This document shows positions 15,422 through 54,627 of a stretch of DNA of 64,000 bases, in pieces. The translations under genes were made by a program, and so were the position numbers. The stretch covers positions 192,001-256,000 of the forward strand of contig JBOEGF010000032.1 in assembly GCA_050633305.1 (NCBI GenBank). Direction: 5' to 3'. Each line of letters starts with the position of its first letter. The first letter of the stretch is position 1. Under the pieces are notes generated by a model. That model searched no databases. It was not told the DNA's origin and was given only the letters and a program-made list of their open reading frames with translations. The DNA comes from Nannocystales bacterium. Its GTDB lineage: Bacteria; Myxococcota_A; Polyangia; Nannocystales; Nannocystaceae.

Positions 15422-15433
15422 AAGGACAAGACC

Positions 15434-16189: not shown

Positions 16190-16191
16190 GC

Positions 16192-18638: not shown

Positions 18639-18668
18639 CGGACCCGGCGCGATAGCATCGCGCTGCCT

Positions 18669-21353: not shown

Positions 21354-21380
21354 CGAGCGCGAGCCCGGCACGCTCCATCT

Positions 21381-21869
21381 GTGACCACCCGTCTGTGCTT
21401 CGTCTGCTTGGGCAACATCTGCCGCTCCCCGACCGCGGAGGGCGTGTTTCGCCACCTCCTCACGCAGCGGGACGATAGCGCACCGTATGCGTTCGAGAGC
21501 GCAGGAACCGCTGCGCACCACACGGGCGAAGCACCTGATCATCGCGCGACCGAAACCGCAGCACGCCGCGGGATCCGACTCGCGGGTGCGGCGGCACAGT
21601 TCACCGCAGAGGACTTCGCACGGTTCGACTGGGTCGTCGCGATGGACGGCGCCAACAAGCGTGACCTCCTCTCCCGAGCGACATCCGAGCAGGACGCCGC
21701 GAAGGTCGTGATGTTGCGAGACTGGGACCCCCACAGCGGCGGTCCGCACGACCTCGACGTTCCGGATCCCTACTATGGCGGCGCCTCCGGCTTCGACGAT
21801 GTGCTCGACATCTGCCTCCGCTCATGCGCGGCCTTGTTGGATGACCTCGAGGCTCGCTCGCGTGCGTGA
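21381..21869 (+). CDS. Low-molecular-weight protein-tyrosine phosphatase
   Basis: P-loop VCLGNICRSP and DPYYG. Confidence 0.94.
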   Translation: MTTRLCFVCLGNICRSPTAEGVFRHLLTQRDDSAPYAFESAGTAAHHTGEAPDHRATETAARRGIRLAGAAAQFTAEDFARFDWVVAMDGANKRDLLSRATSEQDAAKVVMLRDWDPHSGGPHDLDVPDPYYGGASGFDDVLDICLRSCAALLDDLEARSRA

Positions 21870-30951: not shown

Positions 30952-32091
30952 TCAGGCTGCGATCGCAGGTCCCGTCCACGCAGTGGGAGCCTGCACGGAC
31001 AGACCGAGCAGACAGCGCAACGCCTGCACACAGCGAGGTGCGGCGTGCCCGTCTCCGTACGGGTTGCAGCGTGGCTGAGCACGGCGCAGAGCAGCGTCGT
31101 CGTACAACCAACGACGCGCGCTTCGCTCGATCTGGTCCGACTGCCACCCGACCAACTTCGCCCATCCATGCTCGAGAGCCTCGGGCCGTTCTGTCGTGCG
31201 GCGGGTGACCAACACCGGCACCCCGACGCTCGGGGCCTCCTCTTGAATGCCTCCGGAGTCGGTGATGGCAAACCGGCACCGCCGCAGCAGCCACAGCAGC
31301 TCGCCGTGATCCAGCGGGGGCAGCCGTCGCACGTTTCTTGCGGCCAGCAACGGTCCAACGAGAGGATCGAGGGCTGGGTTGGGATGCGCAGGCATCACGA
31401 TCTCCACCTCGGGCGCCGCGCGAGCGAAGGCGGCGACAGCCTTGATGACTTCGGTGGCCCCAGCGGGAAAGCTCTCCCGTCGATGATGGGTGAACAGGAC
31501 GCGGGTCCGAGGAGTCTCCAACCCGCGCAGGCGGTCGGTGGGCGAGGCATCCAGAGGCAGGCTCGCCAGCGTGTGGTGAACCGCATCCACGATGGTGTTG
31601 CCTGTCACGACAACCCGGTGACGAGGGACTCCTTCTTCGTACAGGTTCGTGGCGGCCCGCGGCGTCGGCGCAAGATGGAGCGTCGCGAGCTCGGCGACGC
31701 GGACCCGATGCGACTCCTCGGGCCACGGATGCTCGAGGGATCCGCTGCGCAGGCCCGCCTCGAGGTGCGCGAACGGGACTCCGACTTCATCGCTCGCCTC
31801 GGCGGCGGCCACGACCGATCCGGTATCGCCCTGGGCGAGCACCGCGTCGGGACGATGCTCGCCCAGGGCCGCCATGACCCGCTCGCGGAGCGCGGAAGAC
31901 TCGGCCCCCTGTGCCGGCCCGTCGGGCGGAAGGACCCCCAGCGCGGCGGCGTGGGGAGCCACCAAACCGGCGTGCTGTCCGGTCCACATCACGCGGAACT
32001 CGAGGTCCGCCGCGCCTGCAGCCGCGCGGATCACCGGGGCCAGTTTGACCGCCTCCGGTCGCGTGCCGACCACCACCAACACCCGCTTCAC
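30952..32091 (-). CDS. wecB: UDP-N-acetylglucosamine 2-epimerase (non-hydrolysing)
   Basis: GTRPEAVKLAP, TGQH, QGDT, HLEAGLRS, PWPEE, HRRES, TDSGGIQEEA, TERPE and NPYGDG. Confidence 0.94.
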   Translation of the reverse strand: MKRVLVVVGTRPEAVKLAPVIRAAAGAADLEFRVMWTGQHAGLVAPHAAALGVLPPDGPAQGAESSALRERVMAALGEHRPDAVLAQGDTGSVVAAAEASDEVGVPFAHLEAGLRSGSLEHPWPEESHRVRVAELATLHLAPTPRAATNLYEEGVPRHRVVVTGNTIVDAVHHTLASLPLDASPTDRLRGLETPRTRVLFTHHRRESFPAGATEVIKAVAAFARAAPEVEIVMPAHPNPALDPLVGPLLAARNVRRLPPLDHGELLWLLRRCRFAITDSGGIQEEAPSVGVPVLVTRRTTERPEALEHGWAKLVGWQSDQIERSARRWLYDDAALRRAQPRCNPYGDGHAAPRCVQALRCLLGLSVQAPTAWTGPAIAA

Positions 32092-32158
32092 CCGCCCAGC
32101 GTATCAACGAATTGCCGGCGCTTCGCATGGCAGTGGCGTCGAAGGTAGGGTTCCGCAG

Positions 32159-34825
32159 ATGCGCGCACGCTCCGTCACGCTTCTGACCGCCACCCTCGTG
32201 GCTTCGGCGTGCGGCGATGGCCCTGAGCAGTCGCCGGCCAAGCCGACGGTCGCCGCGCCTTCAGCGGACTCCGCCTGCGACGAGCCCGCCCCCGCCCTGG
32301 CCTGGACCCTCGAACCCCGTTCGGATGGTTCACTCGCCCTGAGCGTCGACCGGTCAACCTTCTTGGTGCTTCGACACGGTGCGCTGCGGGCCGCGGGAAG
32401 CAACGCCAAGCCTTCGGTTCGCAAGCTCCCCTCCGAAGCGGACACCCTCGCCTTCGAGGTCACGTTCGAGTCCCTCCCGGTCGTGATCCGAGGGCTCGCG
32501 AGCCTCCCCACGCCGTCCCAAGTCCGCCTCGAATACACGTTCGAGGCCCGGCAAGCGTTGCGAGATGTGCTGGGTGTCGGCCTTCAGGTCGACCTCGACG
32601 CGCAGACCTGGTCGCTCCCCACCGACGCGCTGGAGATCATCGAGGGACGAGACCTCCGGGTCTCGAGTCCCGCCCTCGGCCAGGTGGAGGTCGCCTTTGA
32701 TCGCGACGGAGCGGTTCCTCGCACCGCCCGCGATCACACTCGCCCGACCCGGGTTCGCTCGGCCTGGCTCGCTGGCGATAGCCCGGCGGGTACCACAACC
32801 GCGGCGGTCACCCTCACGGTCCCTGGGACACTCGCCCTGCAGCCTCCGCTCGCCGCACGGTACGGCCCCCGAAACCTTGCGCAGTGGCACCGCGACGCCT
32901 TGGTTCACGACGATTGGCCCGTCGACCTCAGCCACCTCAATGCCGCACACGGCCGTGCCGGAAGCCACGGCCCCGTGCGCGTCGACGGAGAGAGCCTGCG
33001 CTTCGAGGATGGAACAGAGGCGAGATTTTGGGGCACCAACCTCGCAGCATCCGCGCTGTTCAAGGCCGACGACGCAACGATCATTCGCGAGGCCAAACGG
33101 CTCTGTGCCCTCGGCTACAACCTCGTCCGGCTCCACCACCACGATGCAGCGTGGACGGATCGCAACGTCTTCGACACCTCCGAAGGCAACACCCAGAAGC
33201 TCGACGCCAAAGCGTTGGACCGCCTCGATTTTTGGATCGACACCCTGGCCTCCGAGGGCATCTATGTCTGGCTCGACCTGCACACCGGGCGCAGTTTCCT
33301 ACCTGGGGATGCGATCCCCGGATATGCCGACATGCTCTCGGGTCCCCACCCCAAGCAGGCACGAGGCTTCCAGTACATCAACCCACGGGTCGGAGCCCTG
33401 CTCGAAGGATTCGCGGAGTCGTATCTCCGCCGCAAGAACCCCTACACGGGACGTCCTTGGGCGCAGGAACCCGCGGTGGTCGGCCTCCTTCTCACCAATG
33501 AAAACGACCTGACGCATCATTTTGGTGTCGCATTTCGTCCAGAGACCGGCCGCGAGACCCACATCGCGCTGTTCGACGCGCTCGCGAAGGACATCACCGC
33601 CGAGCTCGGTCTCCCCAGGGACGCAGTGCGCAGCGTCCATCGACCTGGCCCAGGGAAAGTCCTGCTCGCTGAGATGCAACATCGTTGGGACGCACGCGCC
33701 CTAGCCCACCTACGCGGGCTTGGGGCCACGGCGCCCGCGGTGACTACGAATTTCTGGGGCTACGAGTCCTTGCTCAGCCTCCCGCCACTGGCCTCGGGGG
33801 ACATGCTCGATGCCCACAGCTACGGAAAAACGGAAGCGCTGAGCAAGAACCCGCACCGCACAGCGCACTGGCTGCACCACATCGCGGCGGCCCAGGTCTC
33901 GGGCAAACCGCTGACCGTGACCGAGTGGGCCGTCCCCAAACCGGCCGCCGATCGACACAGCGCGGGACTGTGGATCGCGGCGTTGGGCGGTCTTCAAGGT
34001 TGGGATGCCCTGCTGGCGTACAACTACGCCCAAACCCCCCTGGCTTCGGCCCCCACTCGTCAGACCCAGTGGGACCAGCGTGTCGATCCGGCGCAGCTGG
34101 GCCTGGCGCCCACCGCCGCGTTGATGTTCCGCCGGGGCGACATCGCCCTCGCGCGGACAACCACCGCGCTCGTGCCGTCGCTCGACGCCGTCTACGGTGC
34201 GCACACCAGCCCGAAACGTCAGGCTTCGCTGAGGACCGCGGCCGAGCAGACGCGGATGGTCATCGTGTTGCCCGACCATCCGCAACTCGACTGGGACACG
34301 GCAGGCACCGTGCCAAGCGGCGCCACCGTAGTCACCGACCTCGACGAAGACTTGCTCGATCCGTCCGCCACCTCGATCCGTTCGGACACCGGAGAGCTGG
34401 AACGAGACTGGACCCAAGGCGTTCTTCGCATCGACAGCCCACGAGTCCAGGCAGCGTCCGGATGGCTCGGCGGCAAGACCATCACCCTCGGAGACCTTCG
34501 GGTTCGGGTCGAGACCCCCACGGCAACCGTGTCGGCGATCTCCCTGGACGACGCCCCCCTCGCCGGAAGCCGGCGAATCCTCGTGACCGCGGTCGGCCGG
34601 GCCGAACCGCAGCCGGATGGGCACGTGCGGAGCGAGCCGATCTCCGGTGAGATCGCGCTTCGCACGCAGTCCAACGTGAAGATCGCGGCCCTGGGGGCCC
34701 GATCCCGAGCGTGGGATATCCCCGAGGACGCCGAAGCCATCCCCGGGACGCGGGAGGGCGCCTGGGTGCGCCTTCCCCTTCCCGATGCGCCCACGCACTG
34801 GTTCATCCTTGTTTTGGGCCCCTAA
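32159..34825 (+). CDS. Lipoprotein glycoside hydrolase, clan GH-A (GH5-like)
   Basis: Lipobox ASAC, RFWGTNL, GYNLVRLHH, GIYVWLDLH, acid/base TNEND and nucleophile VTEW. Confidence 0.8.
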   Translation: MRARSVTLLTATLVASACGDGPEQSPAKPTVAAPSADSACDEPAPALAWTLEPRSDGSLALSVDRSTFLVLRHGALRAAGSNAKPSVRKLPSEADTLAFEVTFESLPVVIRGLASLPTPSQVRLEYTFEARQALRDVLGVGLQVDLDAQTWSLPTDALEIIEGRDLRVSSPALGQVEVAFDRDGAVPRTARDHTRPTRVRSAWLAGDSPAGTTTAAVTLTVPGTLALQPPLAARYGPRNLAQWHRDALVHDDWPVDLSHLNAAHGRAGSHGPVRVDGESLRFEDGTEARFWGTNLAASALFKADDATIIREAKRLCALGYNLVRLHHHDAAWTDRNVFDTSEGNTQKLDAKALDRLDFWIDTLASEGIYVWLDLHTGRSFLPGDAIPGYADMLSGPHPKQARGFQYINPRVGALLEGFAESYLRRKNPYTGRPWAQEPAVVGLLLTNENDLTHHFGVAFRPETGRETHIALFDALAKDITAELGLPRDAVRSVHRPGPGKVLLAEMQHRWDARALAHLRGLGATAPAVTTNFWGYESLLSLPPLASGDMLDAHSYGKTEALSKNPHRTAHWLHHIAAAQVSGKPLTVTEWAVPKPAADRHSAGLWIAALGGLQGWDALLAYNYAQTPLASAPTRQTQWDQRVDPAQLGLAPTAALMFRRGDIALARTTTALVPSLDAVYGAHTSPKRQASLRTAAEQTRMVIVLPDHPQLDWDTAGTVPSGATVVTDLDEDLLDPSATSIRSDTGELERDWTQGVLRIDSPRVQAASGWLGGKTITLGDLRVRVETPTATVSAISLDDAPLAGSRRILVTAVGRAEPQPDGHVRSEPISGEIALRTQSNVKIAALGARSRAWDIPEDAEAIPGTREGAWVRLPLPDAPTHWFILVLGP

Positions 34826-34884: not shown

Positions 34885-34944
34885 GCCGCTCTAGCCGATC
34901 TTGTGGTCGTCCTTTGCTTGGAAGCGGCGGGTGTACGACATAGA

Positions 34945-37900
34945 ATGGCGGGGTCGTACCCCCCCACTGGGCACGGCGGACGAGAGCAACGCGTGTCTGA
35001 CGAGCGGGCAGCCTTCGCAGGACAGATCACCGACCTCCCGGTGGTGGAACTCCTACGAACCATCTCCAATGGGAAAAAGACGGGAGTCGCCCGTTTTGAG
35101 ACGAACCTCGGCACGGCGACCGTGTGGTTTCGAGAGGGCACCCTCGTCGACGCCGACATGGGGCGGTTCCACATGGGCGACGCGGTCCGGCGACTGATCG
35201 CGACGGATGCAGGCTCGTTCGAGGTTGAGTTCAAGCCCGTCACCCGCCGCCGATTGATCCAAGAGAACACCTCGGATCTCCTCGCGCATACACCCCAGCC
35301 CGCGTCCAAACCCACAGCGAAACCCGCCCCCGCGACGGGGTCTAAGCGGGAGTCCAAGCCCAAGCTTCCGCCCTTGGCCGACGATGCCCGCACTGGGCCG
35401 AGACCTCGGACACGCGCCGCCGCGGGATGGAAACCGACCGCCGGTGGCACGGGTCGCGATGGTGGCGCGGGAGCGGCGTCGCCCGACATGCTGCGCCGCC
35501 TCGAGGCGCTCCGGCGGGCGGCCGATCGTCAGCCACCTCGCCCGGACGTCCTGAACACGACCGCGGCATTGGGGACCCGGAGCCCCGTGAAGTCCGAACC
35601 GACCGGGCGCTCCACGGGCGAGACCCCCCAAGCCGGCCTCGAAGCGCTCAACCGCCTCGCGCAGAAAGCTGCCAAGACCCAGGCAGATCCAGCGAGTTCA
35701 GCCACATCGCCCAACGCGCCGGAGCCCAAGGCTCCGCGGACGGAGCAGAACGGTCCCCCCGAGGCGGAGCGCCAAACAGATCGCGCCCAAGGCCGCGGCG
35801 GCCGCCTCGACGCCGTCCCCCCGGCCACACCGCACGCCACCCCGGCCACGCCGCCTCAGCCGATCGAAGTTGAGAGCGAGCTGGATCTCGAGATGGCCAC
35901 GCGAGCGGTTCAGGCACCCCAAGCACCCCAGGCGACCCCCGCCCCCGCGGCGGCCCCATCCACGCCGAGCCAGCCGGAGCCGGCCCCGCCTCCCCCCGCG
36001 ACGCCGCGCGAAGCCGTGACCGCGCGGCCGGGACGAAGTCGGGGTCCACGGCCGACCGCGGCGATCGAGTCCCGTCGAGCCAAACGAACCTCGTCCGGCA
36101 TTCCCGCGCAGTCAAGCGCTCGCACCGGCGAGACCACGACCCCCGGCCGGACCAAGAAGGACGCCAACGGTTGGACCTTCGTCGATCCCAACCTCGCGAA
36201 AGAGGCCCAGGTCGAAGAGGACCACCGGGCCGACCAGACGATGATGCGGATGGGTCCGCTTCAGCTCCCGCAGGCCGCGAGCAAACGTCCGGGCGGAAAG
36301 CGGAAGCCCCCACGCGCGCAACCGGCGAATCGCCAGGCACACCCGACCCGGGTCGATCCATCGGAGGACCTGAGCGACCCGCTGCCCATCGGGACATCCT
36401 GGTCTGCACCAGCACACGTCGCAGCACCGCGCAGCAAGCCGATCGACAGCGAGCGCAACGACTCCGCTGGCGGTGAGATCGGAAAGGGCAGCCGACCCAG
36501 CGCCGGAAAGACCGTCGTCGCGTTCGCCCCGGATGCGCCGTCCAACCCGGATCCCGGCGGCACCATGACCCACGGGTTCCGTCCGATCACCGACGCCGAG
36601 GGTCCCGACGGCCAGGTACCCGGGCCCAACGCCGCAGGGCTCGCCCCTCGCAGTCCTGCGGCCCCCAAGCGAAAGCCCAGCGGGACGACGCCGCCAGGAG
36701 ACGCGACGAGTGCCGGCGGTGGCGCGCAGGTGGGCCGCTACGAGGTCCTGCTGCGGATCGCCCGAGGCGGCATGGGCACCGTCTACCTGTGCCAGGTCAC
36801 CGGCACCGGGGGCTTCCGCCGCCTCTTCGCACTGAAGGTCATTCGCGACCATCTCAGTCGCAACGAAGAGTACGTGCGGATGCTGCTCCAAGAAGCACGC
36901 ATCGCCTCCCGGCTGCACCACCCCAACGTCGTCGGCATCGTCGACATCGGCAACCTCGCCAACCAGCACTACCTGGTGATGGACTACGTCGAGGGCTGCA
37001 CGCTCTCCGAGCTCCTCAAGGTTCACCGCAAGACACGACCTCCACACCTCATCATTCCAATCGTTCTCGATGCGCTCACGGGTCTACACGCAGCGCACTC
37101 GCTGACCGATGACGATGGCTCCCCGCTCACCCTCGTGCACTGCGACTTCTCTCCGCAGAACATGCTCGTGGGCACCAACGGGATCTGCCAGATCACCGAC
37201 TTCGGGATCGCGCGGGCCTCCAACGCGCTCCCCGAGCGGTCAAGCATCACCCGCGGCAAGCCGGCCTACCTCGCGCCGGAGCAGATCACGGGGCGGCCAT
37301 TCGATCATCGGGCCGACATCTTCGCGTCGGGTGTCGTGCTGTGGAACGCCCTCACCGGGGAGCAACTCTTCAAGGGCGACACGCCCGAGGAGGTGCTCGA
37401 CAAGGTGCTCAACATGCAGATCCCCGCGCCGAGCACGGTGGGCCTGCGCCCACCCAAGAAGCTGGACAAGGTCGTACTGCGCGCCCTTGAGCGCGACCCT
37501 GCCCGGCGCTACCAGAGCGCCGAGGAGATGCTGATCGAGCTCCGCAAAGTCGCGATCGGCAGCGACCTGCTCGCCCCGTCCAGCGAGGTGGCGCAGTGGG
37601 TCGCGGACACGTTCGGTGCCCAGCTCGAGCTTCGGCGCCAAGCGGCGGGGCTCTCCCCCAACAACACCGCGTCGGCAAAGCAACCCGCTGCACCCGCAGA
37701 GGTGACCGCGCTCGCCCTGCGAGACGACGCACCGGGGGCGGACGACTCCGCCACGCATGCGTTGCTCTCGCACCAAGGCCCGGCCTCCGATGCGTCGAAC
37801 ACGATGATGCTGCAGTCGGGCAAGGCCCCTGCTGCCGCTCCGACGGAACGGGCGAGCGATGCGGTGCTCGGCGACCGCGCGCGAAAGATCGTCATTGGGA

Positions 37901-38502
37901 TGGTCGTCTCCGCGTGCGCGACCCTCGTCGCGATCGCCGTCGTCCGTCCGGAACTCCTGACCGGCGGCATGCTCGACGAGGGCGGCGAGTACATCGACCT
38001 GGGCCCCTCGGAGGGCGACCCCAACTTCGACGAATCCCTCGATGATCCGGCTGTTGCCCCGAAGCCAGCGGCCAAGCCCGCGACACCCAATGATCCCAAG
38101 GCCCCCAAGGCCCCCGAGGCCCCCAAGGTCGGCGCCGAGGTCCCAACGCCCGGGACGGATGTCCCCGAGCCCCCCCCCGCCGACCTCGACCCGCTCCCCG
38201 AGTTGACGCCGGAGCCGGTCGAAGAACCCAGCACCCCGCGACCGGAAGCGCCGCGCAAACCGACGACGCCCAAGTCAGGCGACAAGCCGGCCAAACCCGC
38301 GACGCCCAAGCCCGGCAGCAAGCCGGCCAAGCCCAAGTCGGGCGGCGAGACCTCGAAGAAGCCCAAGGCTCAGGACAAGCCCGGGGCCCAAGGCAAGCCG
38401 AAGGCCGACGACAAACCCAAGGCCGACGACAAGCCCAAGTCCGACGACAAACCCAAGGCCGACGCGCCCGAGCTGCCCAGCGCGCCGAAGTTCGACTTCT
38501 GA
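34945..38502 (+). CDS. DUF4388 domain + Ser/Thr kinase + TM + Pro/Lys-rich extracytoplasmic tail
   Basis: N-terminal GQITDLPVVELL...KTG...WFREG; kinase IARGGMGTV, ALK, HCDFSPQN, DFG, GKPAYLAPEQ; TM IVIGMVVSACATLVAIAVV. Start may instead be the GTG near 34993. Confidence 0.88.
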   Translation: MAGSYPPTGHGGREQRVSDERAAFAGQITDLPVVELLRTISNGKKTGVARFETNLGTATVWFREGTLVDADMGRFHMGDAVRRLIATDAGSFEVEFKPVTRRRLIQENTSDLLAHTPQPASKPTAKPAPATGSKRESKPKLPPLADDARTGPRPRTRAAAGWKPTAGGTGRDGGAGAASPDMLRRLEALRRAADRQPPRPDVLNTTAALGTRSPVKSEPTGRSTGETPQAGLEALNRLAQKAAKTQADPASSATSPNAPEPKAPRTEQNGPPEAERQTDRAQGRGGRLDAVPPATPHATPATPPQPIEVESELDLEMATRAVQAPQAPQATPAPAAAPSTPSQPEPAPPPPATPREAVTARPGRSRGPRPTAAIESRRAKRTSSGIPAQSSARTGETTTPGRTKKDANGWTFVDPNLAKEAQVEEDHRADQTMMRMGPLQLPQAASKRPGGKRKPPRAQPANRQAHPTRVDPSEDLSDPLPIGTSWSAPAHVAAPRSKPIDSERNDSAGGEIGKGSRPSAGKTVVAFAPDAPSNPDPGGTMTHGFRPITDAEGPDGQVPGPNAAGLAPRSPAAPKRKPSGTTPPGDATSAGGGAQVGRYEVLLRIARGGMGTVYLCQVTGTGGFRRLFALKVIRDHLSRNEEYVRMLLQEARIASRLHHPNVVGIVDIGNLANQHYLVMDYVEGCTLSELLKVHRKTRPPHLIIPIVLDALTGLHAAHSLTDDDGSPLTLVHCDFSPQNMLVGTNGICQITDFGIARASNALPERSSITRGKPAYLAPEQITGRPFDHRADIFASGVVLWNALTGEQLFKGDTPEEVLDKVLNMQIPAPSTVGLRPPKKLDKVVLRALERDPARRYQSAEEMLIELRKVAIGSDLLAPSSEVAQWVADTFGAQLELRRQAAGLSPNNTASAKQPAAPAEVTALALRDDAPGADDSATHALLSHQGPASDASNTMMLQSGKAPAAAPTERASDAVLGDRARKIVIGMVVSACATLVAIAVVRPELLTGGMLDEGGEYIDLGPSEGDPNFDESLDDPAVAPKPAAKPATPNDPKAPKAPEAPKVGAEVPTPGTDVPEPPPADLDPLPELTPEPVEEPSTPRPEAPRKPTTPKSGDKPAKPATPKPGSKPAKPKSGGETSKKPKAQDKPGAQGKPKADDKPKADDKPKSDDKPKADAPELPSAPKFDF
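38395..38463 (+). repeat. 18-bp degenerate repeat encoding KPK(A/S)DD, about 4 copies
   Basis: KPKADDKPKADDKPKSDDKPKAD at the kinase C-terminus. Confidence 0.8.
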
Positions 38503-38563: not shown

Positions 38564-40033
38564 TCAGCTTGCGCCCTTGTGGAACAAAACCGTCGGCACG
38601 GTCTTCAGCAGGATCTTGATGTCGAGCCAGAAGCTCCAGCTGTCGATGTACTCGAGGTCCAGTTGCATCCACTCGTCGAAGTCGACCTGGTTGCGGCCAC
38701 TGACCTGCCACAGCCCCGTGAGTCCCGGTTTGACCGAGAGACGGCGACGCTGCCACGCCTCGTAGTCGTCCACCTCCGACGGCAACGGAGGCCTCGGTCC
38801 TACGAGACTCATGTCGCCCATCACGATGTTGAAGAACTGCGGAAGCTCGTCGATGCTCGTCTTGCGAATGAACCGACCGACCGCGGTGATTCGTGGATCC
38901 CGCTTGATCTTGAACACCGGCCCGCCCATTTCATTGAGGTGCATCAACGCGGCCTTCTTGGCCTCGGCGTCGATCACCATCGAGCGGAACTTGTACATGG
39001 TGAACTTGCGACCGCTGCGACCCGCGCGGACCTGCTTGAACAGTACCGGGCCCTTCGAGTCGAGCTTGATGGCCAGCGCCGCGACGATCATGATCGGGCC
39101 GGCGAGGACGATGCCGACCACACCGCCCAGGATGTCCAGCAGCCGCTTGCCCACCAACTGAGCCTCTGCCGTCGGCGTTCGGCGGAGTCCGATCATCGGC
39201 TGGTTCACGCCCGAGACGTTCGCCAGCTCCATCTTGCCGCTCGCCGGAACCTGGGGGGGAAGCGTGAGAAGCACGTCGACGCCTCGGTCGTCGCACGCGG
39301 AGAGCGCCTCGCGGAACGTGTCTGGAGACTTTCCGGGGACCGCGAAGACGACCTCATCCACTGGCATCCGGTCCAGCAGGGCATCCAAGGAGCCGACATA
39401 GCCCAAGCGGGGACGGGCCTGTGGGCTGCTCGACTCGCCCATCACGCCAACGAAGCCCTGAATCTCGAGCCGGATCGGGCTTGCTTCGCTGAGCTGTTGC
39501 GCGAACTCGACCGCCCGCGGGCCGGTTCCGACGATCACCACGCGGTGGGCGTCACCGCGCCGGCGCCGGGCCATACGCACGGCCTCCAACAGCAGCACCC
39601 GACCCGAGGTGAGCGCGATCAACTGAAGCACCGCGAACAGGATCACGAACGTCCGAGAAATGAACGTCAGCTTGAAGAGGAAGGCGAGCAGGATCAGCAT
39701 CCCGACGCCCATCGTGGCGGCCTGTAGGTATCGCCACGCGATGCGACGGTGCGCGATTCGGAAGTCGTAGGACTTCGTGTACTGGAGCGAGAGCGCCCAA
39801 AGCGGCAGCAATGCGAGCAGCAGGAGCTGGTAGTCCTCCGGCGCCAAAGGCGGGGGACGCTCCCCGTACCACGCAACCACGCGGCGCACGAAGCCCGACA
39901 CCTCGGCGGGATCGCGAGCGGCCTGTCCCACCCAACTACGGAGGAACAGAGCGAGAACGAAGGCCCCGGCGCTGACGATCGTATCGACCCCCAGGAGCAC
40001 GCGACGGACAAAGGTGGTTCTGCGACGCCACAT
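38564..40033 (-). CDS. Priming polyprenyl glycosylphosphotransferase (WcaJ/WbaP/EpsZ-like sugar transferase)
   Basis: N-terminal TMs, CoA-binding-like VVIVGTG, KRLLDI, YKFRSM, DPRIT, RKTSIDELPQ, GDMSLVGPRP and KPGLTGLWQV. Confidence 0.93.
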   Translation of the reverse strand: MWRRRTTFVRRVLLGVDTIVSAGAFVLALFLRSWVGQAARDPAEVSGFVRRVVAWYGERPPPLAPEDYQLLLLALLPLWALSLQYTKSYDFRIAHRRIAWRYLQAATMGVGMLILLAFLFKLTFISRTFVILFAVLQLIALTSGRVLLLEAVRMARRRRGDAHRVVIVGTGPRAVEFAQQLSEASPIRLEIQGFVGVMGESSSPQARPRLGYVGSLDALLDRMPVDEVVFAVPGKSPDTFREALSACDDRGVDVLLTLPPQVPASGKMELANVSGVNQPMIGLRRTPTAEAQLVGKRLLDILGGVVGIVLAGPIMIVAALAIKLDSKGPVLFKQVRAGRSGRKFTMYKFRSMVIDAEAKKAALMHLNEMGGPVFKIKRDPRITAVGRFIRKTSIDELPQFFNIVMGDMSLVGPRPPLPSEVDDYEAWQRRRLSVKPGLTGLWQVSGRNQVDFDEWMQLDLEYIDSWSFWLDIKILLKTVPTVLFHKGAS

Positions 40034-40207: not shown

Positions 40208-42277
40208 ATGCTAACCACCTTCCCGAGCCCGATGGTCAACTCGAATCGAACTGGCCGAACTCTCGTTCCCGGCATGCAACACGCCTCCCAGGGCACCGGC
40301 CACGGTCTCGGCGGCCCGGCTGGGGGCGCGGGCGGCAATGGAGCGGGCCTCGACGCCATGTTGGAGGTTGTCGGAGACAGCCCCGCGGCGGGATCGGCCC
40401 ACGCGTTCTTCCTCGTGATCAGTGGGTCCGAACCGGGCCGGCTTCACGTCCTGGAAAAACAGGAGCTGGTGATCGGTCGCAGCAAATACGCCGACATCCG
40501 CATCAGCGAGCGGGCGATGTCCCAGCAGCACGCCAAGGTCGTGCAAACCGCGGAAGGACATCGGCTCTACGACTTGGGCTCCACCAACGGGACGTTCGTC
40601 AACGACAACCAGATCGAGTCCGTCGACCTGCGTGCGGGCGACGTCGTCCGCACCGGTGAGACGGTGTTCACGTACATGGCCTCGGGCTCCGGCGCCCCGA
40701 TGGATGGTGGCGTTGGCGGACGTGGCGACAGCACCGTCGCCCTCCCCAACCGGCCACGAGGAGCCGCCCCGCCCCCCGCCGCAACACCCCTGATCGCTGC
40801 GCCACTGCCGGGCGCGCAGCCCACCGGCGGCGGTGCACTGGCCCTGCGTTCACAGGTTGCCCCCGCCGCGGTGGCGATGACGCCTCAGGTCATCGGTGTC
40901 CCCGCCGCCGCCCCCGTCGACGAGGAGAGCGATCCCATCGGGATGCTCATCAAGGTCCTCGACTTCGCGAAGCGGTATTGGCTGCAGATCGCGATCTTCA
41001 CAGTCCTCGGCGCCGGGTTGGGCGTCGCGAGTTACAAGTTCGCAAAGCCGCCGGCGGTCGCCACGTTCGAGGTGCAGCTCATCCAGCCGCCGACCGACAA
41101 CATGATGACCAAGGGCCGACGGATGAACTTCGAGTTCTTCCGGTCCGCCCAGAAGAGCTTCCGCCGCCCGGCGATCATTCGCGCATCGCTCGAGGCGCTC
41201 GGCGAAGAAGACTCCTCGCAGAACCGACTGCGGAAGGTCCGCGACTCCCTGGTCTTCAAGCAGGCCAACCGTCGGCAAGCCAAAGATGTCTACGAAGGCA
41301 GCTACAAGGCTGCAACGGCTGACGACGCGCTCGAGTACCTGCGCGTCCACCTCAAGATCTTCATCGATGCCGAGATCGACAAGGCCATGAAGGTCTTGCA
41401 CGTCGAGGTGGAGACGCTGGAGAAGAAGCTCAAGCAGGCGGACGAGGACCTCAGCGCCACCGAGCAGGCGGTGATGGCGTTCCGCCAAGAGCACAGCGAG
41501 GGCCTGCCCGAGCAAGCCCAAGCGATGTACCAGGAGTTGATGACCCTGCGCTCCGCGAAGGGAGCCACGGCGGGCGCCGTCACGCGGGCATCCGAGGAGC
41601 TTCGAAACCGACGCAAGCAGCTCAAGTCCAAGGCGCCCGAGTTGCAGACCCGCATCGACCTGGCGCGCCCCTACGAGGACTCGATCTCCGAGATCAACCG
41701 ATCCCTGGGAGAAGCCCGGGCAGCAGGGAAGGCCTCCCAGCACCCCGACGTCATCAAGCTCAAGCGACAAAAAGCCAGCCTCGAGAAACAGCGGGATCAG
41801 GTCCTCAAGAACGGCGGCAGCAAGATCGTTCGCGAGAGCAACCCGGCGTATGAGGGCCGACGTGAGGCCAAGGACTCGGCCGAGGCTGAACTCCGAATCG
41901 CACAGTCTCAGCTCGGTCGCCTGACCAACGACATGGACCGGGCCAAGAAACTGGTCGCGGCGCTGCCCAGGCTCCAGCGCGAGTACGCGGAGCTGACACG
42001 CAGCTACGAGGCCACCACCGCCGTCCGCAAGCGCGTGTTCGACAACCTCGAGTCGAGCCGGATCCAGCTCGACCTCGAGCGCGCGTCCGCTGCGACCCGG
42101 TACGACATCACGACGCCGCCGAACGTCGAGCCGGTCAAGAAGGTCAAGACGATCGTTACACGGGCGGGCGCGCTGGGCATCCTCGGGTTCGGGTTTGCGA
42201 TTTTCCTGGGCTTGCTGCGCGACCTCCGTCGGGTGCTCGCCACCCGCATGGCACAGCGCGGCTCCGGGCGCGCCTAG
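40208..42277 (+). CDS. FHA domain fused to a polysaccharide co-polymerase (Wzc/GumC-like, no tyrosine-kinase domain)
   Basis: FHA motifs IGRS, SQQHA, DLGSTNGTFVN; Pro/Ala linker; TM1 WLQIAIFTVLGAGLGV; long coiled coil with HPDV and LPRLQREYAELTRSYE; TM2 GALGILGFGFAIFLGLL; short tail. Start uncertain. Confidence 0.82.
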   Translation: MLTTFPSPMVNSNRTGRTLVPGMQHASQGTGHGLGGPAGGAGGNGAGLDAMLEVVGDSPAAGSAHAFFLVISGSEPGRLHVLEKQELVIGRSKYADIRISERAMSQQHAKVVQTAEGHRLYDLGSTNGTFVNDNQIESVDLRAGDVVRTGETVFTYMASGSGAPMDGGVGGRGDSTVALPNRPRGAAPPPAATPLIAAPLPGAQPTGGGALALRSQVAPAAVAMTPQVIGVPAAAPVDEESDPIGMLIKVLDFAKRYWLQIAIFTVLGAGLGVASYKFAKPPAVATFEVQLIQPPTDNMMTKGRRMNFEFFRSAQKSFRRPAIIRASLEALGEEDSSQNRLRKVRDSLVFKQANRRQAKDVYEGSYKAATADDALEYLRVHLKIFIDAEIDKAMKVLHVEVETLEKKLKQADEDLSATEQAVMAFRQEHSEGLPEQAQAMYQELMTLRSAKGATAGAVTRASEELRNRRKQLKSKAPELQTRIDLARPYEDSISEINRSLGEARAAGKASQHPDVIKLKRQKASLEKQRDQVLKNGGSKIVRESNPAYEGRREAKDSAEAELRIAQSQLGRLTNDMDRAKKLVAALPRLQREYAELTRSYEATTAVRKRVFDNLESSRIQLDLERASAATRYDITTPPNVEPVKKVKTIVTRAGALGILGFGFAIFLGLLRDLRRVLATRMAQRGSGRA

Positions 42278-42329: not shown

Positions 42330-43694
42330 TCAGCGACGACCGCCGCTGGCGGCATCGGAGTTTCCGCGCGTCGACCGGGTGACCGCGCCCTGGCCACCGC
42401 CGCCAACCTCTTGCCCGCCGCGGGCTGTGCCGGCTCCGATTCGGTAGGCGACGTACAGCCAGGCTTCGGACTGGCCTAGGGAGAAGTCCTCCGCTGCGAG
42501 GTGGGGGGCGCGGGCCGTCGCCAGCAGTCCGAACTCGAACTGCTGCTCGTCCGAGATCTGGTACGTGACCGGGAGCGCGACCCGGAACTGGCTCTCCGTG
42601 ACCGGCCGAGTCGATTCCCCGTCCAAGCTCTCCCGCGGCGCTCGTGGATCCCGGGTGGCGTTGGTGATCGCCCCGACCATCCCGCGAATGGACCAACGCG
42701 GAGGCAGGGACACCTGGACCGATGCGTTGAGCGTCGCACGCGGGCTGAGGTCGATCTGAACGCGATCGAAGTAGGGGGTGAGACCAGCCGAGAGCGTCGC
42801 GTCCACGCTGTGGCTCGCGCTGCGAACGAGCCCGCCGGTCACCGATGCCAAAGCGACGGGCAGCACGGGCACGTCGTCGGTTCGAGTGTTGCCGAGCCCG
42901 GCCGATCCGAACACGCCCGCGCCCACCGTCGATTGCAGCGACGGACGGATGTCGCGGCGCCACTGTCCCACCGCTTGCGCGGTCATGAACTGCGTGTCGC
43001 CAGAGTTGTAGTCGAAGTAACCCGGGGTGACCTCGACCTCCACGGAGTCGGCTTGCGAGACTCGAGTGTCGAGCGACACCGCTCCATTGATGCTGAGCTG
43101 CTCGGGAATTCCTGCCGAGGACAACTGCTGGCTGTCGTCAGTGACCTCGGGGATGCCCAAGGGTGTCCGGTAGACGATGTCCGTTCGAAGCCCCAGCGTG
43201 TGGCGGCGGGTGAGTCGGCCCTCAGCGCTCAGGCCCGCCGAGCCCACCGCGATCTGAAGGACCGATGCCTCTGTCCGTGAGACGTTCGGAGCATCGGCTC
43301 CGTCGCCGATGATCTCCGGTGCCGCGTTGTACCCGACCTCCCCGACGCTGCCGCCGAGGTTCACGCCCAACGTCCAGCGAGCGTCCACAGGCTGCCGCAC
43401 GGTTGCGTACGCTTGATGCAGAAGCAACGGGAGGTCGGCATCGAGCAGGTTGGGTTCACGATGCTGAACCCGAGGCGTGTAGCCGAGATTGAACAAGGTT
43501 CCACGGCGGGACTCGACCTCCATGTCGACGTCGGGAGTCAGAATCACAAGGACCGTCGGGACCGCCGACTCTTGGGGGGCGGGTGGCGCCCAACCACCGC
43601 GAACCTCGATCGCCGCACCACCAGACACATCCACACGGGACGCGGCGGGGTCCGCTGCGAACCACAGCGCGGCGAGAAGGCTCAACGAACTCAT
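42330..43694 (-). CDS. Putative outer-membrane beta-barrel porin for polysaccharide export
   Basis: Signal peptide, many amphipathic strands (FNLGYTP, WTLGVNLGGS), directly downstream of the OPX gene. Confidence 0.65.
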   Translation of the reverse strand: MSSLSLLAALWFAADPAASRVDVSGGAAIEVRGGWAPPAPQESAVPTVLVILTPDVDMEVESRRGTLFNLGYTPRVQHREPNLLDADLPLLLHQAYATVRQPVDARWTLGVNLGGSVGEVGYNAAPEIIGDGADAPNVSRTEASVLQIAVGSAGLSAEGRLTRRHTLGLRTDIVYRTPLGIPEVTDDSQQLSSAGIPEQLSINGAVSLDTRVSQADSVEVEVTPGYFDYNSGDTQFMTAQAVGQWRRDIRPSLQSTVGAGVFGSAGLGNTRTDDVPVLPVALASVTGGLVRSASHSVDATLSAGLTPYFDRVQIDLSPRATLNASVQVSLPPRWSIRGMVGAITNATRDPRAPRESLDGESTRPVTESQFRVALPVTYQISDEQQFEFGLLATARAPHLAAEDFSLGQSEAWLYVAYRIGAGTARGGQEVGGGGQGAVTRSTRGNSDAASGGRR

Positions 43695-43704
43695 CGGGGT
43701 CGAC

Positions 43705-44325
43705 CTACTCGACTACGAGGACATCGCCGTCACGCAACACGATCTTGCTCGGGCATTCCACGCCGCCAGCGAGGTCGTAGTAGTTGAACCGCACCCGGAC
43801 CCGCTGCGGGTACTTGCGCACGAGGTAGATGCTCTTCACGTCGGCGAACTCGGTCAGGCCACCGGCGAGGGCGAGGGCCGCGAGCAGCCCCTCTTCGTGC
43901 TCCATCGGGAACCGACCCGGGCTGCGAACTTCTCCGACCACCGACACATACGGAAAACGCTGGTTGACGACCGAGATGTTCGCGTCCGGGTTGACGACAA
44001 TGCCGTTGAGACGTGCGTTGAGTTTTCGCTCCGCCGCCTCGAGCGTCAGGTCGGCGACCTCGAGCGCACCGACGAGGGGCAGAATCACGCTTCCATCGGC
44101 GGTGACCGTGTAGGGATCCCGCGCCTGCAATTCTTCCATGCGCGGAACCGTGACCACCACCTGGTCGCCTGCGCGCAGCGGTGTATCGCCCACCGACACG
44201 TCGGCATCCGGGACGTCTTTGCACTGCACGTACGGATGTTGCGGCTTGCAGCCGGACAGGGCCAGGACGCCAGCGATGGCGAGAATCATCGTTCCAAGGG
44301 GTCGCGTGCCCACGAGCGCCATCAT
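43705..44325 (-). CDS. Short OPX/Wza-like polysaccharide export protein (Poly_export + one SLBB domain)
   Basis: LRAGDQVVV, VTADGSVILPLVG, VVGEVRSPG, ALAGGLTEFAD, LRDGDVLVVE; ends without an outer-membrane helix; lipobox-like LSGC. Confidence 0.88.
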   Translation of the reverse strand: MMALVGTRPLGTMILAIAGVLALSGCKPQHPYVQCKDVPDADVSVGDTPLRAGDQVVVTVPRMEELQARDPYTVTADGSVILPLVGALEVADLTLEAAERKLNARLNGIVVNPDANISVVNQRFPYVSVVGEVRSPGRFPMEHEEGLLAALALAGGLTEFADVKSIYLVRKYPQRVRVRFNYYDLAGGVECPSKIVLRDGDVLVVE

Positions 44326-44498
44326 CGACCCGAGGCGACCCAAGCGCAACCTGGTGGGAGACGAGGACACTCGCGCCCTGCAATTGTCCAGGATCGCGCC
44401 ATCGGGGCCATCCCCTGGCCCGTCCTAACACCTCGGGTTCGCCATGAAACCGTGGCCATCGGTACATCTGACGGTATGCTTGTATGGAGGGACCCACG

Positions 44499-44858
44499 AT
44501 GGACGAGACCGCCAACGACACGAGCGCCGCAGAGCGCCGCGAATTCCCGCGGATCCAGGCGCCCATCTACTGCAGGCCGGCACACCGCCGCTTGCGGCGT
44601 CGCAAGGTGGTCGACGTAGGGCTCGGAGGCATGCGGGTCTACAGCGACGAACCGTTCGCCATCGGCGCTCGGTTCGAAGTCGAGCTGTTCATGTCCGACG
44701 GGGACAGTGTCAATTGCCTCACCGAGGTCATGTGGACCCGGCCGATCCCCGGTGGCCAGCCCGCCCCCTTCGATGTCGGCCTGAAGTTCCTCCACGTCCC
44801 CGAAGCTGGGTACGCGAAGCTGACGGCCCTGCTCGAAGTCTCAGGCGACCGCAGCTAG
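44499..44858 (+). CDS. Stand-alone PilZ domain protein
   Basis: ERREFPR (RxxxR) and DVGLGG (variant of DxSxxG), plus EVMW and GLKF. Confidence 0.85.
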   Translation: MDETANDTSAAERREFPRIQAPIYCRPAHRRLRRRKVVDVGLGGMRVYSDEPFAIGARFEVELFMSDGDSVNCLTEVMWTRPIPGGQPAPFDVGLKFLHVPEAGYAKLTALLEVSGDRS

Positions 44859-44913: not shown

Positions 44914-45750
44914 CTACGACGTGAGCTGATCCAGCACCGCCGCAACGTTGTCGCGCCAGTGTGGCATCGGACCCAACAACGCCTCGGTCGGCGCGAGATC
45001 CAGGACCGAGTACGCCGGCCGCACCGCAGGCCTTGGAAAGGCCTCGGACGAACAGGGCTGGACGTCGCAGTCGGGGTTCACGGTGGCAATCACCGCCGCC
45101 GCAAACTCATGCCACGTGCACTCGCCACCATCGGTGACATGCAGCGTTCCCCGAGCACCCGCCTCGAGCAGGCCCAGCGACGCGGACGCAAGATGCTGCG
45201 CGCTGGTGGGTCGCCCTCGCTGGTCGTCGACGACCTGAAGGGTGTCCCGCTCGGCACCCAACTTGCGCATCGTGAGTACGAAGTTCTTTCCCCAGGGCGC
45301 ATACAGCCAGCTCGTGCGCAAGATGAGGTGCTCGGCATTCGACGCCCGGATGAGCGTCTCGCCATGCGCCTTGCCCCGACCGTATGCGTTGACCGGGTCG
45401 TGCGCGCCATCCGTCGGGTATGGGACGGTCGCATCGCCAGCAAAGACGTAGTCGGTGCTGTAGTGCACGAGCACGCTGCCTGCCTCCGCACAACAGGCCG
45501 CCAGCCGCCCGACCGCATCGCCGTTGAGCGCAGTGGCCTGCGCCTCTTGGGCCTCGGCACCATCGACGTCGGTCCAGGCAGCGCAGTTGATCACACGGCC
45601 GTACCCGCCCTCTGAAACGCGGGCCAGCGACGCCTCGGACGTGAGGTCGAAGTCTGGGAACGAGACCGACTCGAAGGGCAGCCCCTTCTCCTCGAGCAGG
45701 TTCTTCCACGCCTGGCCCAGCATCCCATCGGGGCTGATCAGTAGGTCCAT
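44914..45750 (-). CDS. rmlD: dTDP-4-dehydrorhamnose reductase
   Basis: GMLG, NCAAWTDVDGAE, STDYVF, YGRGK, LRTSWLY, VDDQRGRPT and RPAYSVL. Confidence 0.93.
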   Translation of the reverse strand: MDLLISPDGMLGQAWKNLLEEKGLPFESVSFPDFDLTSEASLARVSEGGYGRVINCAAWTDVDGAEAQEAQATALNGDAVGRLAACCAEAGSVLVHYSTDYVFAGDATVPYPTDGAHDPVNAYGRGKAHGETLIRASNAEHLILRTSWLYAPWGKNFVLTMRKLGAERDTLQVVDDQRGRPTSAQHLASASLGLLEAGARGTLHVTDGGECTWHEFAAAVIATVNPDCDVQPCSSEAFPRPAVRPAYSVLDLAPTEALLGPMPHWRDNVAAVLDQLTS

Positions 45751-45751
45751 C

Positions 45752-46321
45752 TCAGCCGACCTCCGGCTCGGAAAACGGTGGAAGCGTGTCGGGGGGGATC
45801 GCAGAGAGTCGCGGATACACTTTGTCTTTCTCCGAGAGGGAGGGCTCCGCGACGGGCCATTCGATGCCGACCTCGGGGTCGTTCCACAACACCCCGTGTT
45901 CGCACTCCGGGTGGTATCCGTCGGTGCACTTGTACGAGAACAGCGCTTCGTCGGAGGTCACGCAAAAGCCGTGAGCAAACCCGGGGGGAACGTAGAACTG
46001 GCGGTGGTTGTCGGCGGAAAGCGTCACCCCGACCCATTGCCCGAACGTCGGGGATCCGCGCCGAACATCGACTGCGACGTCGAACACCTCGCCTTGCAGC
46101 ACTTGAACGAGCTTTCCTTGCCCGTGGGGATGCTGCAGATGCAACCCGCGCAGCACCCCTCGCGACGACTTGGAGAGGTTGTCCTGAACGAACGGAGCGG
46201 CGATGCCAGCCTCCGCGTACCGCTGTGTCGAGTATGTCTCCTTGAAGAAGCCGCGGCTGTCCCCGAACACCCGGGGTTCGATGATCACGAGCCCGGGGAT
46301 CTTGGTGGTCTCGACCTTCAC
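45752..46321 (-). CDS. rmlC: dTDP-4-dehydrorhamnose 3,5-epimerase
   Basis: [41 protein letters not shown] and LSEKD. Confidence 0.96.
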
Positions 46322-47217
46322 CGAAGTGACTCCGAGGCGTTGGCCAACCGCGCAAGGTACTGGCCGTACTCGGTCTTCTTGAGCGGGTCAGCCAACGCTG
46401 CGAGGGCCTCCGTGTCGATCCAGCCCGCGCGGTACGAGATTTCCTCGGGGCATGCGATCTGCAGCCCCTGGCGTTGCTCGATCGTCTGGATGAAGTTGGC
46501 CGCCTGCATGAGCGCGTCGGGGTTGCCAGTGTCGAGCCACGCGAACCCGCGGCCGAGTCGCTCGACCCGCAGCTTGTCCTGCTCGAGGTACCGACGGTTG
46601 AGGTCAGTGATCTCCAGCTCCCCACGAGGCGAGGGTTTGAGCGATGCCGCGAGGTCGCAGACCTGGTTGTCGTAGAAGTACAAGCCGGTGACGGCCCAGT
46701 TGGACTTGGGCTTGGCCGGTTTCTCCTCGAGGCTGAGGCAGCGCCCTTCCCCGTCGATTTCCGCCACGCCGTAGGCTTGTGGTTCCTTGACCCAGTAGCC
46801 AAACACCGTGGCACCCTCCTGAGTCGAGGCCGCCTTGCCCAGCAGCTCGGGCAGGCTCGCGCCGTAGAAGATGTTGTCGCCCAGGACCAGGCAGCACCCT
46901 TCGTCGCCAACGAAGTCCTTGCCGATGATGAACGCCTGCGCGAGCCCGTCGGGGCTGGGCTGAACGGCCCACTGGATGTTCATGCCCCACTGGCTTCCGT
47001 CGCCAAGCAGCCGCTGGAACATCTCTTGCTCGTGCGGAGTCGTGATGATCAGGACGTCCCGAATCCCCGACAGCATCAGCGTCGAGAGCGGGTAGTAGAT
47101 CATCGGCTTGTCGTACACCGGCATCAGCTGCTTGCTGACGCCCTTGGTGAGCGGATGCAACCGGGTTCCCGACCCGCCTGCGAGGATGATGCCCTTTGTG
47201 ATTCCAGTGCTGCTCAT
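46318..47217 (-). CDS. rmlA: Glucose-1-phosphate thymidylyltransferase
   Basis: [52 protein letters not shown] and GFAWLDTG. Confidence 0.97.
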
Positions 47218-47275
47218 CGATTCGCTTCAACTGTTCGTCGGTTGACTGTCGGTCGGGCCGCGCGAGGCGGCCGGC

Positions 47276-48325
47276 CTAGTCGGCGCGGTTGGTGTAGTTC
47301 TTCTCGATCCAGTTGCGGTACTCGCCGCTGCGCACCTGCCCAATCCATTCGGGATTGTCGAGGTACCAGTGGACCGTCTTGCGGAATCCGGTCTCGAACG
47401 TCTCGGCCGGAGACCAGCTCAACTCGGTCTCGATCTTGGTGGCATCGATCGCGTAGCGAAGGTCGTGCCCGGGTCGGTCCTTGACGTAGGTGATCAGCGA
47501 CTCGAGTTCGCGGGTCGGCTTGCCTTGGCGCTCGGCGACCAGCTTGCAGATGATCTTCACCACGTCGATGTTGCGGACCTCGTTGTTCCCACCGATGTTG
47601 TACGTGTCGCCGACCTTGCCCTCGTTGACCACTTTCCAGATGGCTTCGCAGTGGTCGGTCACGTACAGCCAGTCGCGCACGTTGAGCCCCTCGCCATACA
47701 CCGGAAGCGGCTTGCCCTCGGCCGCGTTGAGCGTGATCACTGGGATGAGCTTCTCGGGGAACTGCAGCGGACCGTAGTTGTTGGAGCAGTTCGTGATCTT
47801 GACCGGGAGGCCATAGGTGCGGTGGTACGCACGCACCAGGTGATCGCTGGATGCTTTCGAGGCCGAGTACGGGCTCGAGGGGTCGTAACGGGTGTCCTCG
47901 ACGAACATCCCAGTCTCCCCCAGGGAACCGTAGACCTCGTCGGTGCTGACGTGATGGAACAGCCCGTTGTCCTTGCCCCACCGTTTGCGAGCCTCTTCCA
48001 GCAGGTTGAACGTGCCGATGATGTTGCTCTCGATGAAGGCGCGCGGGCCCTCGATCGACCGGTCGACATGGCTCTCGGCAGCGAAGTGCACGACCGCGTC
48101 GGGCTTGTGCTCCTCGAACGCTTCGGCGACGGCCTTCGCGTCCGCGATGTCGAGCTGGACGAAGCTGTAGTTCGCGGCGTCCGCGATACCCGCAAGGCTC
48201 CCGAGGTTGGCCGCGTACGTCAGCTTGTCGGCGTTGATGAAATGATGCTCGCCGTGCCGCGGCACGAGGAGATTGAGGAAGTTGGCGCCGATAAATCCCG
48301 CGCCTCCAGTGACCATGATCCGCAT
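47276..48325 (-). CDS. rmlB: dTDP-glucose 4,6-dehydratase
   Basis: [47 protein letters not shown] and DRPGHD. Confidence 0.97.
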
Positions 48326-50382: not shown

Positions 50383-50634
50383 CTACCAGCCGCCTTCGTC
50401 TTTCTTCTCAGCGCCGTCCTTGGCCTCTGGTTTGTCGGCCTTGGCGTCGTCCTTCTTGTCGTCGGCCTTGGCGTCGTCCTTCTTGTCGCCAGCCTTGGCG
50501 TCGTCCTTCTTGTCGCCAGCCTTGGCATCGTCCTTCTTGTCAGCCTTGGCGTCGTCCTTCTTGGCGTCGTCGCACGCGACAACGCCGAGGCACAGAGGGA
50601 GGGCGAGGAGTGTGGTGAGGATGCGGACGTTCAT
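50383..50634 (-). CDS. Small lipoprotein made of Lys/Asp/Ala repeats
   Basis: Signal peptide with VVAC lipobox, then KKDDAKA(G/D)D repeats; ATGA overlap with the kinase stop codon. Confidence 0.75.
   Translation of the reverse strand: MNVRILTTLLALPLCLGVVACDDAKKDDAKADKKDDAKAGDKKDDAKAGDKKDDAKADDKKDDAKADKPEAKDGAEKKDEGGW
50431..50571 (-). repeat. 21-24-bp tandem repeat encoding KKDDAKA(G/D)D, about 5 copies
   Basis: Repeated CCTTGGCGTCGTCCTTCTTG units on the + strand. Confidence 0.85.
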
Positions 50635-52199: not shown

Positions 52200-52347
52200 G
52201 TCCTGAGCATTGTACGCGGCCCCGTAGCCCCCCCGCACCCCCGTTCCATGTCGCCAGCGCTCCGAATCGGGCCGGTTGAAACGCCACAGCCGCACGGCTG
52301 TCGACGCATTCTCGAGGGTCTGCCACACTCCCGGGCCAGACCTCATC

Positions 52348-54623
<2,276 letters not shown>

Positions 54624-54627
<4 letters not shown>

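Follow-up and report, generated by a model that had tools for sequence, protein, structure and literature searches.

The open reading frame (ORF) at 40208-42277 of the 64,000-nucleotide stretch of Nannocystales DNA analyzed here (the window) encodes a two-TM polysaccharide co-polymerase (PCP) that is fused to an FHA domain and carries no tyrosine kinase. Across genomes, an intact FHA accompanies one neighboring kinase subfamily, suggesting threonine phosphorylation as the likely switch of the export machine. On balance, and by slightly better than an even chance, we favor a Wzx/Wzy co-polymerase that would be switched by the neighboring membrane Ser/Thr kinase via phosphothreonine binding. Wzx/Wzy biology has yet to explain how the phosphorylation cycles of co-polymerases drive polymerization and export. 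Co-polymerases that lack a BY-kinase (BYK) and are phosphorylation-independent are already known (EpsV/EcpK), hence the missing BYK alone is not the novelty. We found no description of an FHA-co-polymerase in the open-access literature, supplementary figures on myxobacterial orthologues and most subscription journals aside, and the main texts of PMC12004946 and PMC9601211 contain neither "FHA" nor "forkhead".

The frame is open for 689 aa with a GC3 of 0.76-0.96 throughout, and the window contains no N. M9 is probably the real start, because the homologues begin there. An FHA domain with phosphothreonine-binding residues had been proposed in the initial annotation, and the profile search agrees (PF00498 at residues 88-149, E 1.6e-15). 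G90, R91, S105, H108, N127 and G128 are all found, so that the domain has the conserved FHA set of GR, SxxH and NG blocks, as given in the available text of PMC4238996, together with the beta-sandwich fold (Z 20 to GarA/OdhI, VIA). The domain is likely a phosphothreonine reader, judging by these residues. The linker that follows (residues 161-240) is disordered (pLDDT <50).

The two hydrophobic segments (mean hydropathy 1.57 and 1.9) are separated by ∼370 mostly helical residues. The body was said to end about 20 aa past TM2, and indeed the tail has 22 residues, no Walker A pattern is present in the protein and the last Tyr is residue 632. Its reading as a co-polymerase also holds: the body matches the chain-length determinant model TIGR03007 at E 5e-28, below the cut-off, and the family profile matches Wzc (E 4e-7 to 1e-6) and PslE (E 1e-4). 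In fold comparisons, Foldseek returned Wzc (9r68; E 4e-9, with a TM score of only 0.28) and VIA returned KpsE (Z 14.1 over 241 residues). Pfam Wzz and GNVR did not match the co-polymerase even at E 1, hence an InterPro architecture search for FHA plus Wzz/GNVR would probably miss the family. An assembly artefact was ruled out as the origin of the fusion, since the FHA is in the same chain in 59/60 close homologues (E<1e-39), the exception being a 390-aa fragment.

The protein has what is expected of a PCP, namely two TMs around a helical periplasmic domain, homology and fold matches to solved PCPs, and a Wzx/Wzy context with an OPX. It does not have the fused BY-kinase with Walker A/A′/B motifs and Tyr cluster that marks PCP-2a (Wzc), nor the stand-alone, usually adjacent BY-kinase of PCP-2b (CapAB; source genome 92% complete), nor the NF041864 match that marks EpsV orthologues. 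It is a PCP and works like a PCP-2, yet it falls outside PCP-2a, PCP-2b and EpsV orthology by their defining tests.

The features of the locus are collected in Table 1. The priming transferase gene is divergent from the co-polymerase gene, the predicted beta-barrel and OPX genes are convergent with it, and the membrane Ser/Thr kinase, the GH5 hydrolase and WecB lie beyond the priming transferase. The OPX is an EpsY-like protein of 221 aa, and no family match was found for the predicted beta-barrel. Wzy, Wzx and GT2 genes are present in the same locus of relatives, and Wzy and Wzx homologues lie side by side on contig C24 of the source genome. The locus fits the short-OPX/beta-barrel export type described in the available text of PMC9601211.

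Table 1. Features of the FHA-co-polymerase locus (window positions) and PCP-OPX fusions of relatives.
Feature	Position	Strand	Remarks
WecB epimerase	30952-32091	-	conserved beside kinase
GH5 hydrolase	ORF 31649-34825	+	conserved beside kinase
Membrane Hanks-type Ser/Thr kinase	34903..38502	+	inferred partner
Kinase parts			DUF4388; kinase domain 613-874; juxtamembrane T967 motif; TM 996-1014
Kinase catalytic residues			K645, E664, non-RD H746-C-D748, N753, DFG 766-768
Priming phosphoglycosyl transferase	38564..40033	-	TIGR03025 above cut-off; EpsZ/WcaJ-like
FHA-co-polymerase gene	40208..42277	+	689 aa; likely start 40232 (M9)
N-terminal Thr-rich motif, second candidate phosphosite	40247..40273	+	residues 14-22; conservation restricted to the closer homologues of the window's family
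FHA domain	40391..40687	+	residues ~62-160; pThr-binding residues R91, S105, H108, N127
Linker motif T176-V-A-L, candidate self-phosphosite	40733..40744	+	T-hydrophobic-x-hydrophobic
TM1	40988..41044	+	residues 261-279
Periplasmic co-polymerase body	41045..42151	+	alpha/beta base and long helices, ~370 aa
TM2 and 22-residue Arg-rich tail	42152..42274	+	TM2 = 649-667; no BYK
Predicted outer-membrane beta-barrel, EpsX-like role	42330..43694	-	sequence pattern and conserved position beside OPX
Short D1D2-type OPX lipoprotein	43705..44370	-	EpsY model E 9e-23, below cut-off; Poly_export and SLBB
Stand-alone PilZ protein	44484..44858	+	locus-conserved in the window's family
rmlB-A-C-D (dTDP-rhamnose) genes	44914..48325	-	
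PCP-OPX fusions	L264:8509-11070, L267, L268:8840-11407, L269, L274, L275, L277, L278, L279, L283; P0156, P0168, P0175		split: L288, L290

The PilZ protein (44484-44858) is a possible c-di-GMP input beside a phosphothreonine input. An FHA-histidine kinase-receiver hybrid (50631-52763, - strand), found near the locus in nine relatives' stretches, could read the same kinase as a second reader. PPK1 and PPK2 polyphosphate kinases are in tandem at 52276-55577. At 14624-21869, isochorismatase-like, vWA, PP2C phosphatase and kinase genes stand in a row, followed by a second kinase and a probable low-molecular-weight phosphatase; the row, which we take to resemble a vWA-phosphatase-kinase stress module, has no link to the polysaccharide locus. 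On contig C24 (76000-95999, L207), a phosphatase-like gene, presumably PHP-type, adjoins a long OPX and sugar-pathway genes and probably serves one of two fused Wzc systems.

No BY-kinase was found within the 64-kb window, as the initial annotation had stated; the TIGR01007 matches on the contig lie outside. The genome-wide search for a stand-alone BY-kinase that it had proposed returned none in the source genome (92% complete), whose two BY-kinases (contigs C19 and C7) are each fused to another co-polymerase. The remaining TIGR01007 matches of this genome were rejected as BY-kinases by their sequence; we take them to be ParA/Soj-, FlhG- and Mrp-like. The BYK profile had no match in the FHA-PCP loci examined, and a BYK was present in 0/147 family representatives. 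Over 54 FHA-PCP genomes, most BYK matches fall in long fused frames and six genomes have none; the short BYK frames of G673 and G592 were set aside as what look like frameshifted fused Wzc genes. Split PCP and BYK-like pairs occur in three relatives (G011, G600 and G618), and the BYK-like genes of the latter two sit behind their own co-polymerase.

Pseudokinases were sought with an EcpK-like profile built from small proteins in EpsV/Wzy_EPS-type clusters; position, together with a weak match to BYK (hhalign E 0.003, probability 11%), served to identify the seed. The profile recovered 7/7 EpsY-type control genomes (three held out) and 0/41 FHA-PCP genomes, with the proviso that the seed identity is weak and a more distant pseudokinase could escape. 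The BYK profile missed the EcpK-like protein, so a remote pseudokinase could escape that search too. No match of the co-polymerase to the EpsV model NF041864 was found at E 0.1 or better; the homologue of G347 reaches E 2e-6 only, and a Myxococcaceae EpsV-like protein 6e-113.

The co-polymerase body is present in 30/72 genomes of the order and in 70/400 genomes of the class sample, distributed over four families (f1, f76, f80 and f2). A profile search (E<1e-30) gave 179 clusters at 50% identity. Among 147 new representatives, short length or a truncated N-terminus kept the FHA from being judged in 38, and the 109 judgeable ones comprise 87 with an intact, 15 with a decayed, two with a partial and five with no FHA. 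In one family member (P0071), the FHA is replaced by an unrelated membrane and repeat region, which makes up the N-terminal 345 residues and has no Pfam match. A contig search seeded on the FHA motif mainly recovered unrelated FHA genes (79/80 matches). Second copies of the FHA-co-polymerase were observed in G048 (L140), G046 (L174) and G031 (L173); the FHA of the G048 and G046 copies is decayed, and export genes are absent from the surroundings of the G048 copy.

Nineteen genomes retain the locus with neither a working FHA nor the kinase. In 12 of them, from two families, the co-polymerase is fused in frame to the short OPX: TM2 is followed by a short loop, by another hydrophobic segment, the third, in which a lipobox is retained, and by the OPX. 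Ten of these frames are unbroken and two are frameshifted upstream; all 12 genomes lack the kinase subfamily as well as a working FHA. The fusion may join PCP and OPX covalently into one conduit, or be a polyprotein that is cleaved.

The kinase at 34903-38502 has the catalytic Lys, alphaC Glu, catalytic Asp/Asn and DFG of Hanks-type enzymes. These residues are invariant in 20/20 aligned subfamily kinases, all of them non-RD, unlike the HRD of 227/265 kinase-like ORFs of the source genome. In a quick tree, the locus kinases of families f1 and f2 group apart from 29 source-genome paralogues (SH-aLRT 94-97). When the co-polymerase-adjacent kinases of G347 and G009 were searched against the source genome, the window kinase was the best match (314 vs. 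199 and 300 vs. 186 bits); in the reverse search the adjacent kinase came second, another family member scoring slightly or clearly higher. With 265 kinase-like ORFs and 61 FHA-like ones in the source genome, other partners are possible.

The best 40 candidates per genome were scored with a subfamily profile, and, with the reverse searches added, a subfamily kinase was found in 43/47 intact-FHA genomes and in 0/19 genomes with only a decayed or absent FHA. This tally leaves out G005, G006 and G069 (FHA not typed) and G618 (frameshifted). In-clade kinases scored at least 388 bits, even for genomes outside the model, and genomes with a decayed or lost FHA at most 274 bits. The four genomes with an intact FHA in which the kinase was not found among the best 40 candidates are G048 (95% complete), G665 (95%, best 325 bits), G031 (71%) and G697 (70%). 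The kinase shares the co-polymerase locus in 35/43 genomes, over three families and several arrangements of the genes; it often lies immediately upstream in the same orientation (with a 4-bp overlap in G347), and in the other eight genomes it is kept away from the locus. The FHA state predicted from kinase status was correct at four of four unseen loci; at a fifth locus, that of the 70% complete G697, the FHA is intact although the kinase was not found. On the body tree the FHA decayed four times, by different substitutions; three of the four changes of state fall in genomes lacking the kinase and the fourth in second copies that are orphans. There are only 2-3 contrasts that are independent on the phylogeny, and the sign test does not reach significance (p at least 0.5). 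These patterns suggest that the kinase is likely the dedicated partner of the FHA-co-polymerase. Control by Ser/Thr phosphorylation through this kinase (placed at 34945-38502 in the initial annotation) thus gains from the synteny over three families, the absence of the kinase where the FHA is decayed and a Thr motif that tracks intact FHAs; the gating of export itself, which had been part of the same proposal, we only infer.

That motif lies in the linker. T176 is Thr in at least 90% of 32 kinase-linked homologues, within otherwise variable linkers. The motif was present with 34/48 intact vs. 2/21 decayed FHAs in the discovery set (shuffles 3.8 and 1.4), and with 42/87 vs. 0/15 in largely held-out representatives (shuffles 5.9 and 0.6), which overlap the discovery set only slightly (Fisher p 3e-4, not corrected for kinship). 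It is absent from 14/48 and 45/87 intact FHAs, those of G347 and G009 among them. Many FHA domains prefer a hydrophobic residue at pT+3. The N-terminal Thr-rich motif is limited to closer homologues, and T176 is therefore preferred as the candidate self-site. On the kinase side, the T967-type juxtamembrane motif was found in 18/30 locus kinases (shuffles 3.8) vs. 4/41 paralogues (shuffles 3.7), and is absent from the other 12 locus kinases. AlphaFold left the unphosphorylated linker undocked on the FHA (pLDDT <50), and the complex prediction for the kinase domain and juxtamembrane segment with the FHA (score 0.00, mark 0.32) counts neither way.

We propose that the non-RD kinase would autophosphorylate at T967 and that the FHA would dock on the phosphorylated T967, bringing the co-polymerase linker to the kinase. 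The kinase would then phosphorylate T176, and the FHA of the same or a neighboring protomer would capture pT176. Capture could tighten or loosen the presumed octamer ring, with either direction (on or off) compatible with the model, and the change in the ring would tune polymerization and hand-over to the short OPX/beta-barrel translocon. Such a step would stand in, as an optional layer, for the Tyr-phosphorylation-driven ring opening of Wzc. The kinase-less relatives keep the whole locus, so that phosphorylation looks regulatory rather than obligatory, and the 19 genomes without a working FHA or kinase argue that the step is not mechanically required. Probably, then, phosphorylation adds a regulatory layer and does not replace the obligatory kinase cycle of Wzc like for like. 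More tentatively, and with somewhat less than an even chance, the family could form a fourth PCP-2 control class, in which the ring is opened and closed by inter-protomer FHA-pThr links made by its own non-RD membrane kinase. This would be a convergent re-invention of the Wzc tyrosine cycle, and lineages that drop the kinase would let the FHA decay, many then fusing co-polymerase and OPX.

The same observations were weighed against other readings. The FHA might serve docking or localization only, binding the autophosphorylated kinase or another pThr protein and so placing or assembling the export machine without ring switching. Synteny and co-loss are explained equally well in this way, the juxtamembrane Thr motif is specific to locus kinases, and the linker motif is missing from many intact FHAs; left unexplained, however, is why kinase-linked homologues conserve their linker Thr so strongly and why it disappears where the FHA decays, and we regard this reading as unlikely, if worth keeping in sight. 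Less probable still is an effector role, with the free FHA regulating a neighboring enzyme (the priming transferase or Wzy) and self-occupation by pT176 switching it off, so that control would fall on initiation and not on the ring. In its favor, GarA and OdhI come closest in FHA fold, no neighbor is more constant than the priming transferase, and a self-site fits the logic, which in GarA is of this type. The fold is nevertheless common to all FHA domains, no partner surface was identified, and loci work with the FHA wholly lost (G612, G627 and G654).

A quite improbable reading places the usual cycle under a BY-kinase or EcpK-like pseudokinase from another part of the genome, which would bind the Arg-rich tail and leave the FHA an accessory role. 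According to the available text of PMC12004946, the tail of EpsV is similar, with 25 residues and Arg anchors, and the gene for its partner EcpK lies apart from that of EpsV. Pseudokinases are hard to detect, as the missed EcpK-like protein illustrates, the source genome is 92% complete, and the split pairs of three relatives are of this kind. Against this stand the EcpK-like profile, which recovered every EpsY-type control and none of the 41 FHA-PCP genomes, the fusion of both source-genome BYKs to other co-polymerases, the position of the G600 and G618 BYK-like genes behind a co-polymerase of their own, and the lack of a match to the EpsV model. In the 12 relatives with a PCP-OPX fusion the tail runs into the OPX, hence no free tail is there for a trans kinase. 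There is hardly more than a slight chance that FHA and kinase are linked simply by inheritance of gene order, with no coupling of function: the independent contrasts are few and myxobacteria have hundreds of kinases, but the linkage survives several rearrangements, the kinase was kept after moving away in eight genomes, and decay of FHA, linker motif and kinase coincide.

If the switch by the neighboring kinase is correct, it would tie one of the myxobacterium's ∼250 kinases to a defined output. The family shows the machine in three natural states, (i) FHA with a dedicated kinase, (ii) decayed FHA without the kinase and (iii) co-polymerase fused to the OPX, so that one could test whether the machine needs ring cycling mechanically or uses it only for regulation. 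The residues for such tests are R91, S105 and T176 of the co-polymerase, and K645 and T967 of the kinase.

Among known systems, E. coli Wzc (PCP-2a; PDB 9r62, 9r64 and 9r68) resembles the FHA-PCP in its two TMs, helical periplasmic body, profile and fold match, and Wzx/Wzy context. Unlike Wzc, the FHA-PCP has no C-terminal BY-kinase, Walker motifs or Tyr tail and has an N-terminal FHA instead, and its inferred partner kinase is a separate, Hanks-type membrane protein. In M. xanthus, as far as the available text of PMC12004946 and PMC9601211 goes, the co-polymerase of the EpsV/EcpK and EpsY/EpsX system is likewise BYK-less and has a short tail containing Arg, and its neighbors are a priming transferase, a short OPX and a predicted beta-barrel. 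EpsV uses the pseudokinase EcpK through its 25-residue tail, and its control is described as phosphorylation-independent (PMC12004946, available text). EpsV differs in its 37-residue N-terminal extension, for which that text mentions no FHA; the FHA-PCP, unlike EpsV, has no NF041864 match, and the EcpK-like profile matched in 0/41 FHA-PCP genomes.

In S. aureus, a Ser/Thr kinase also influences a co-polymerase system, PknB phosphorylating Thr8 of CapB (PMC6441080, available text). There, a global kinase damps a BY-kinase; unlike CapAB/PknB, the FHA-PCP has no BYK, its reader is built into the co-polymerase and its kinase is locus-linked. The closest working analogy is M. tuberculosis Rv1747/PknF, an FHA export protein whose linker threonines are phosphorylated by a kinase of the same locus (PMC8339232; locus pairing in PMC4238996; available text of both). 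Rv1747 differs in being an ABC transporter with two FHAs, without homology to the FHA-PCP outside the FHA. In Bdellovibrio DgcB (PMC6733907, available text) and in GarA/OdhI, the FHA likewise binds its own threonine peptide, possibly between chains; these proteins are soluble and their site is N-terminal to the FHA, in contrast to T176, which is C-terminal. The phosphorylated linker of Rv1747 (PMC8339232) and the self-tail of DgcB (PMC6733907), as far as described in the available text, are precedents that support the proposed capture of T176.
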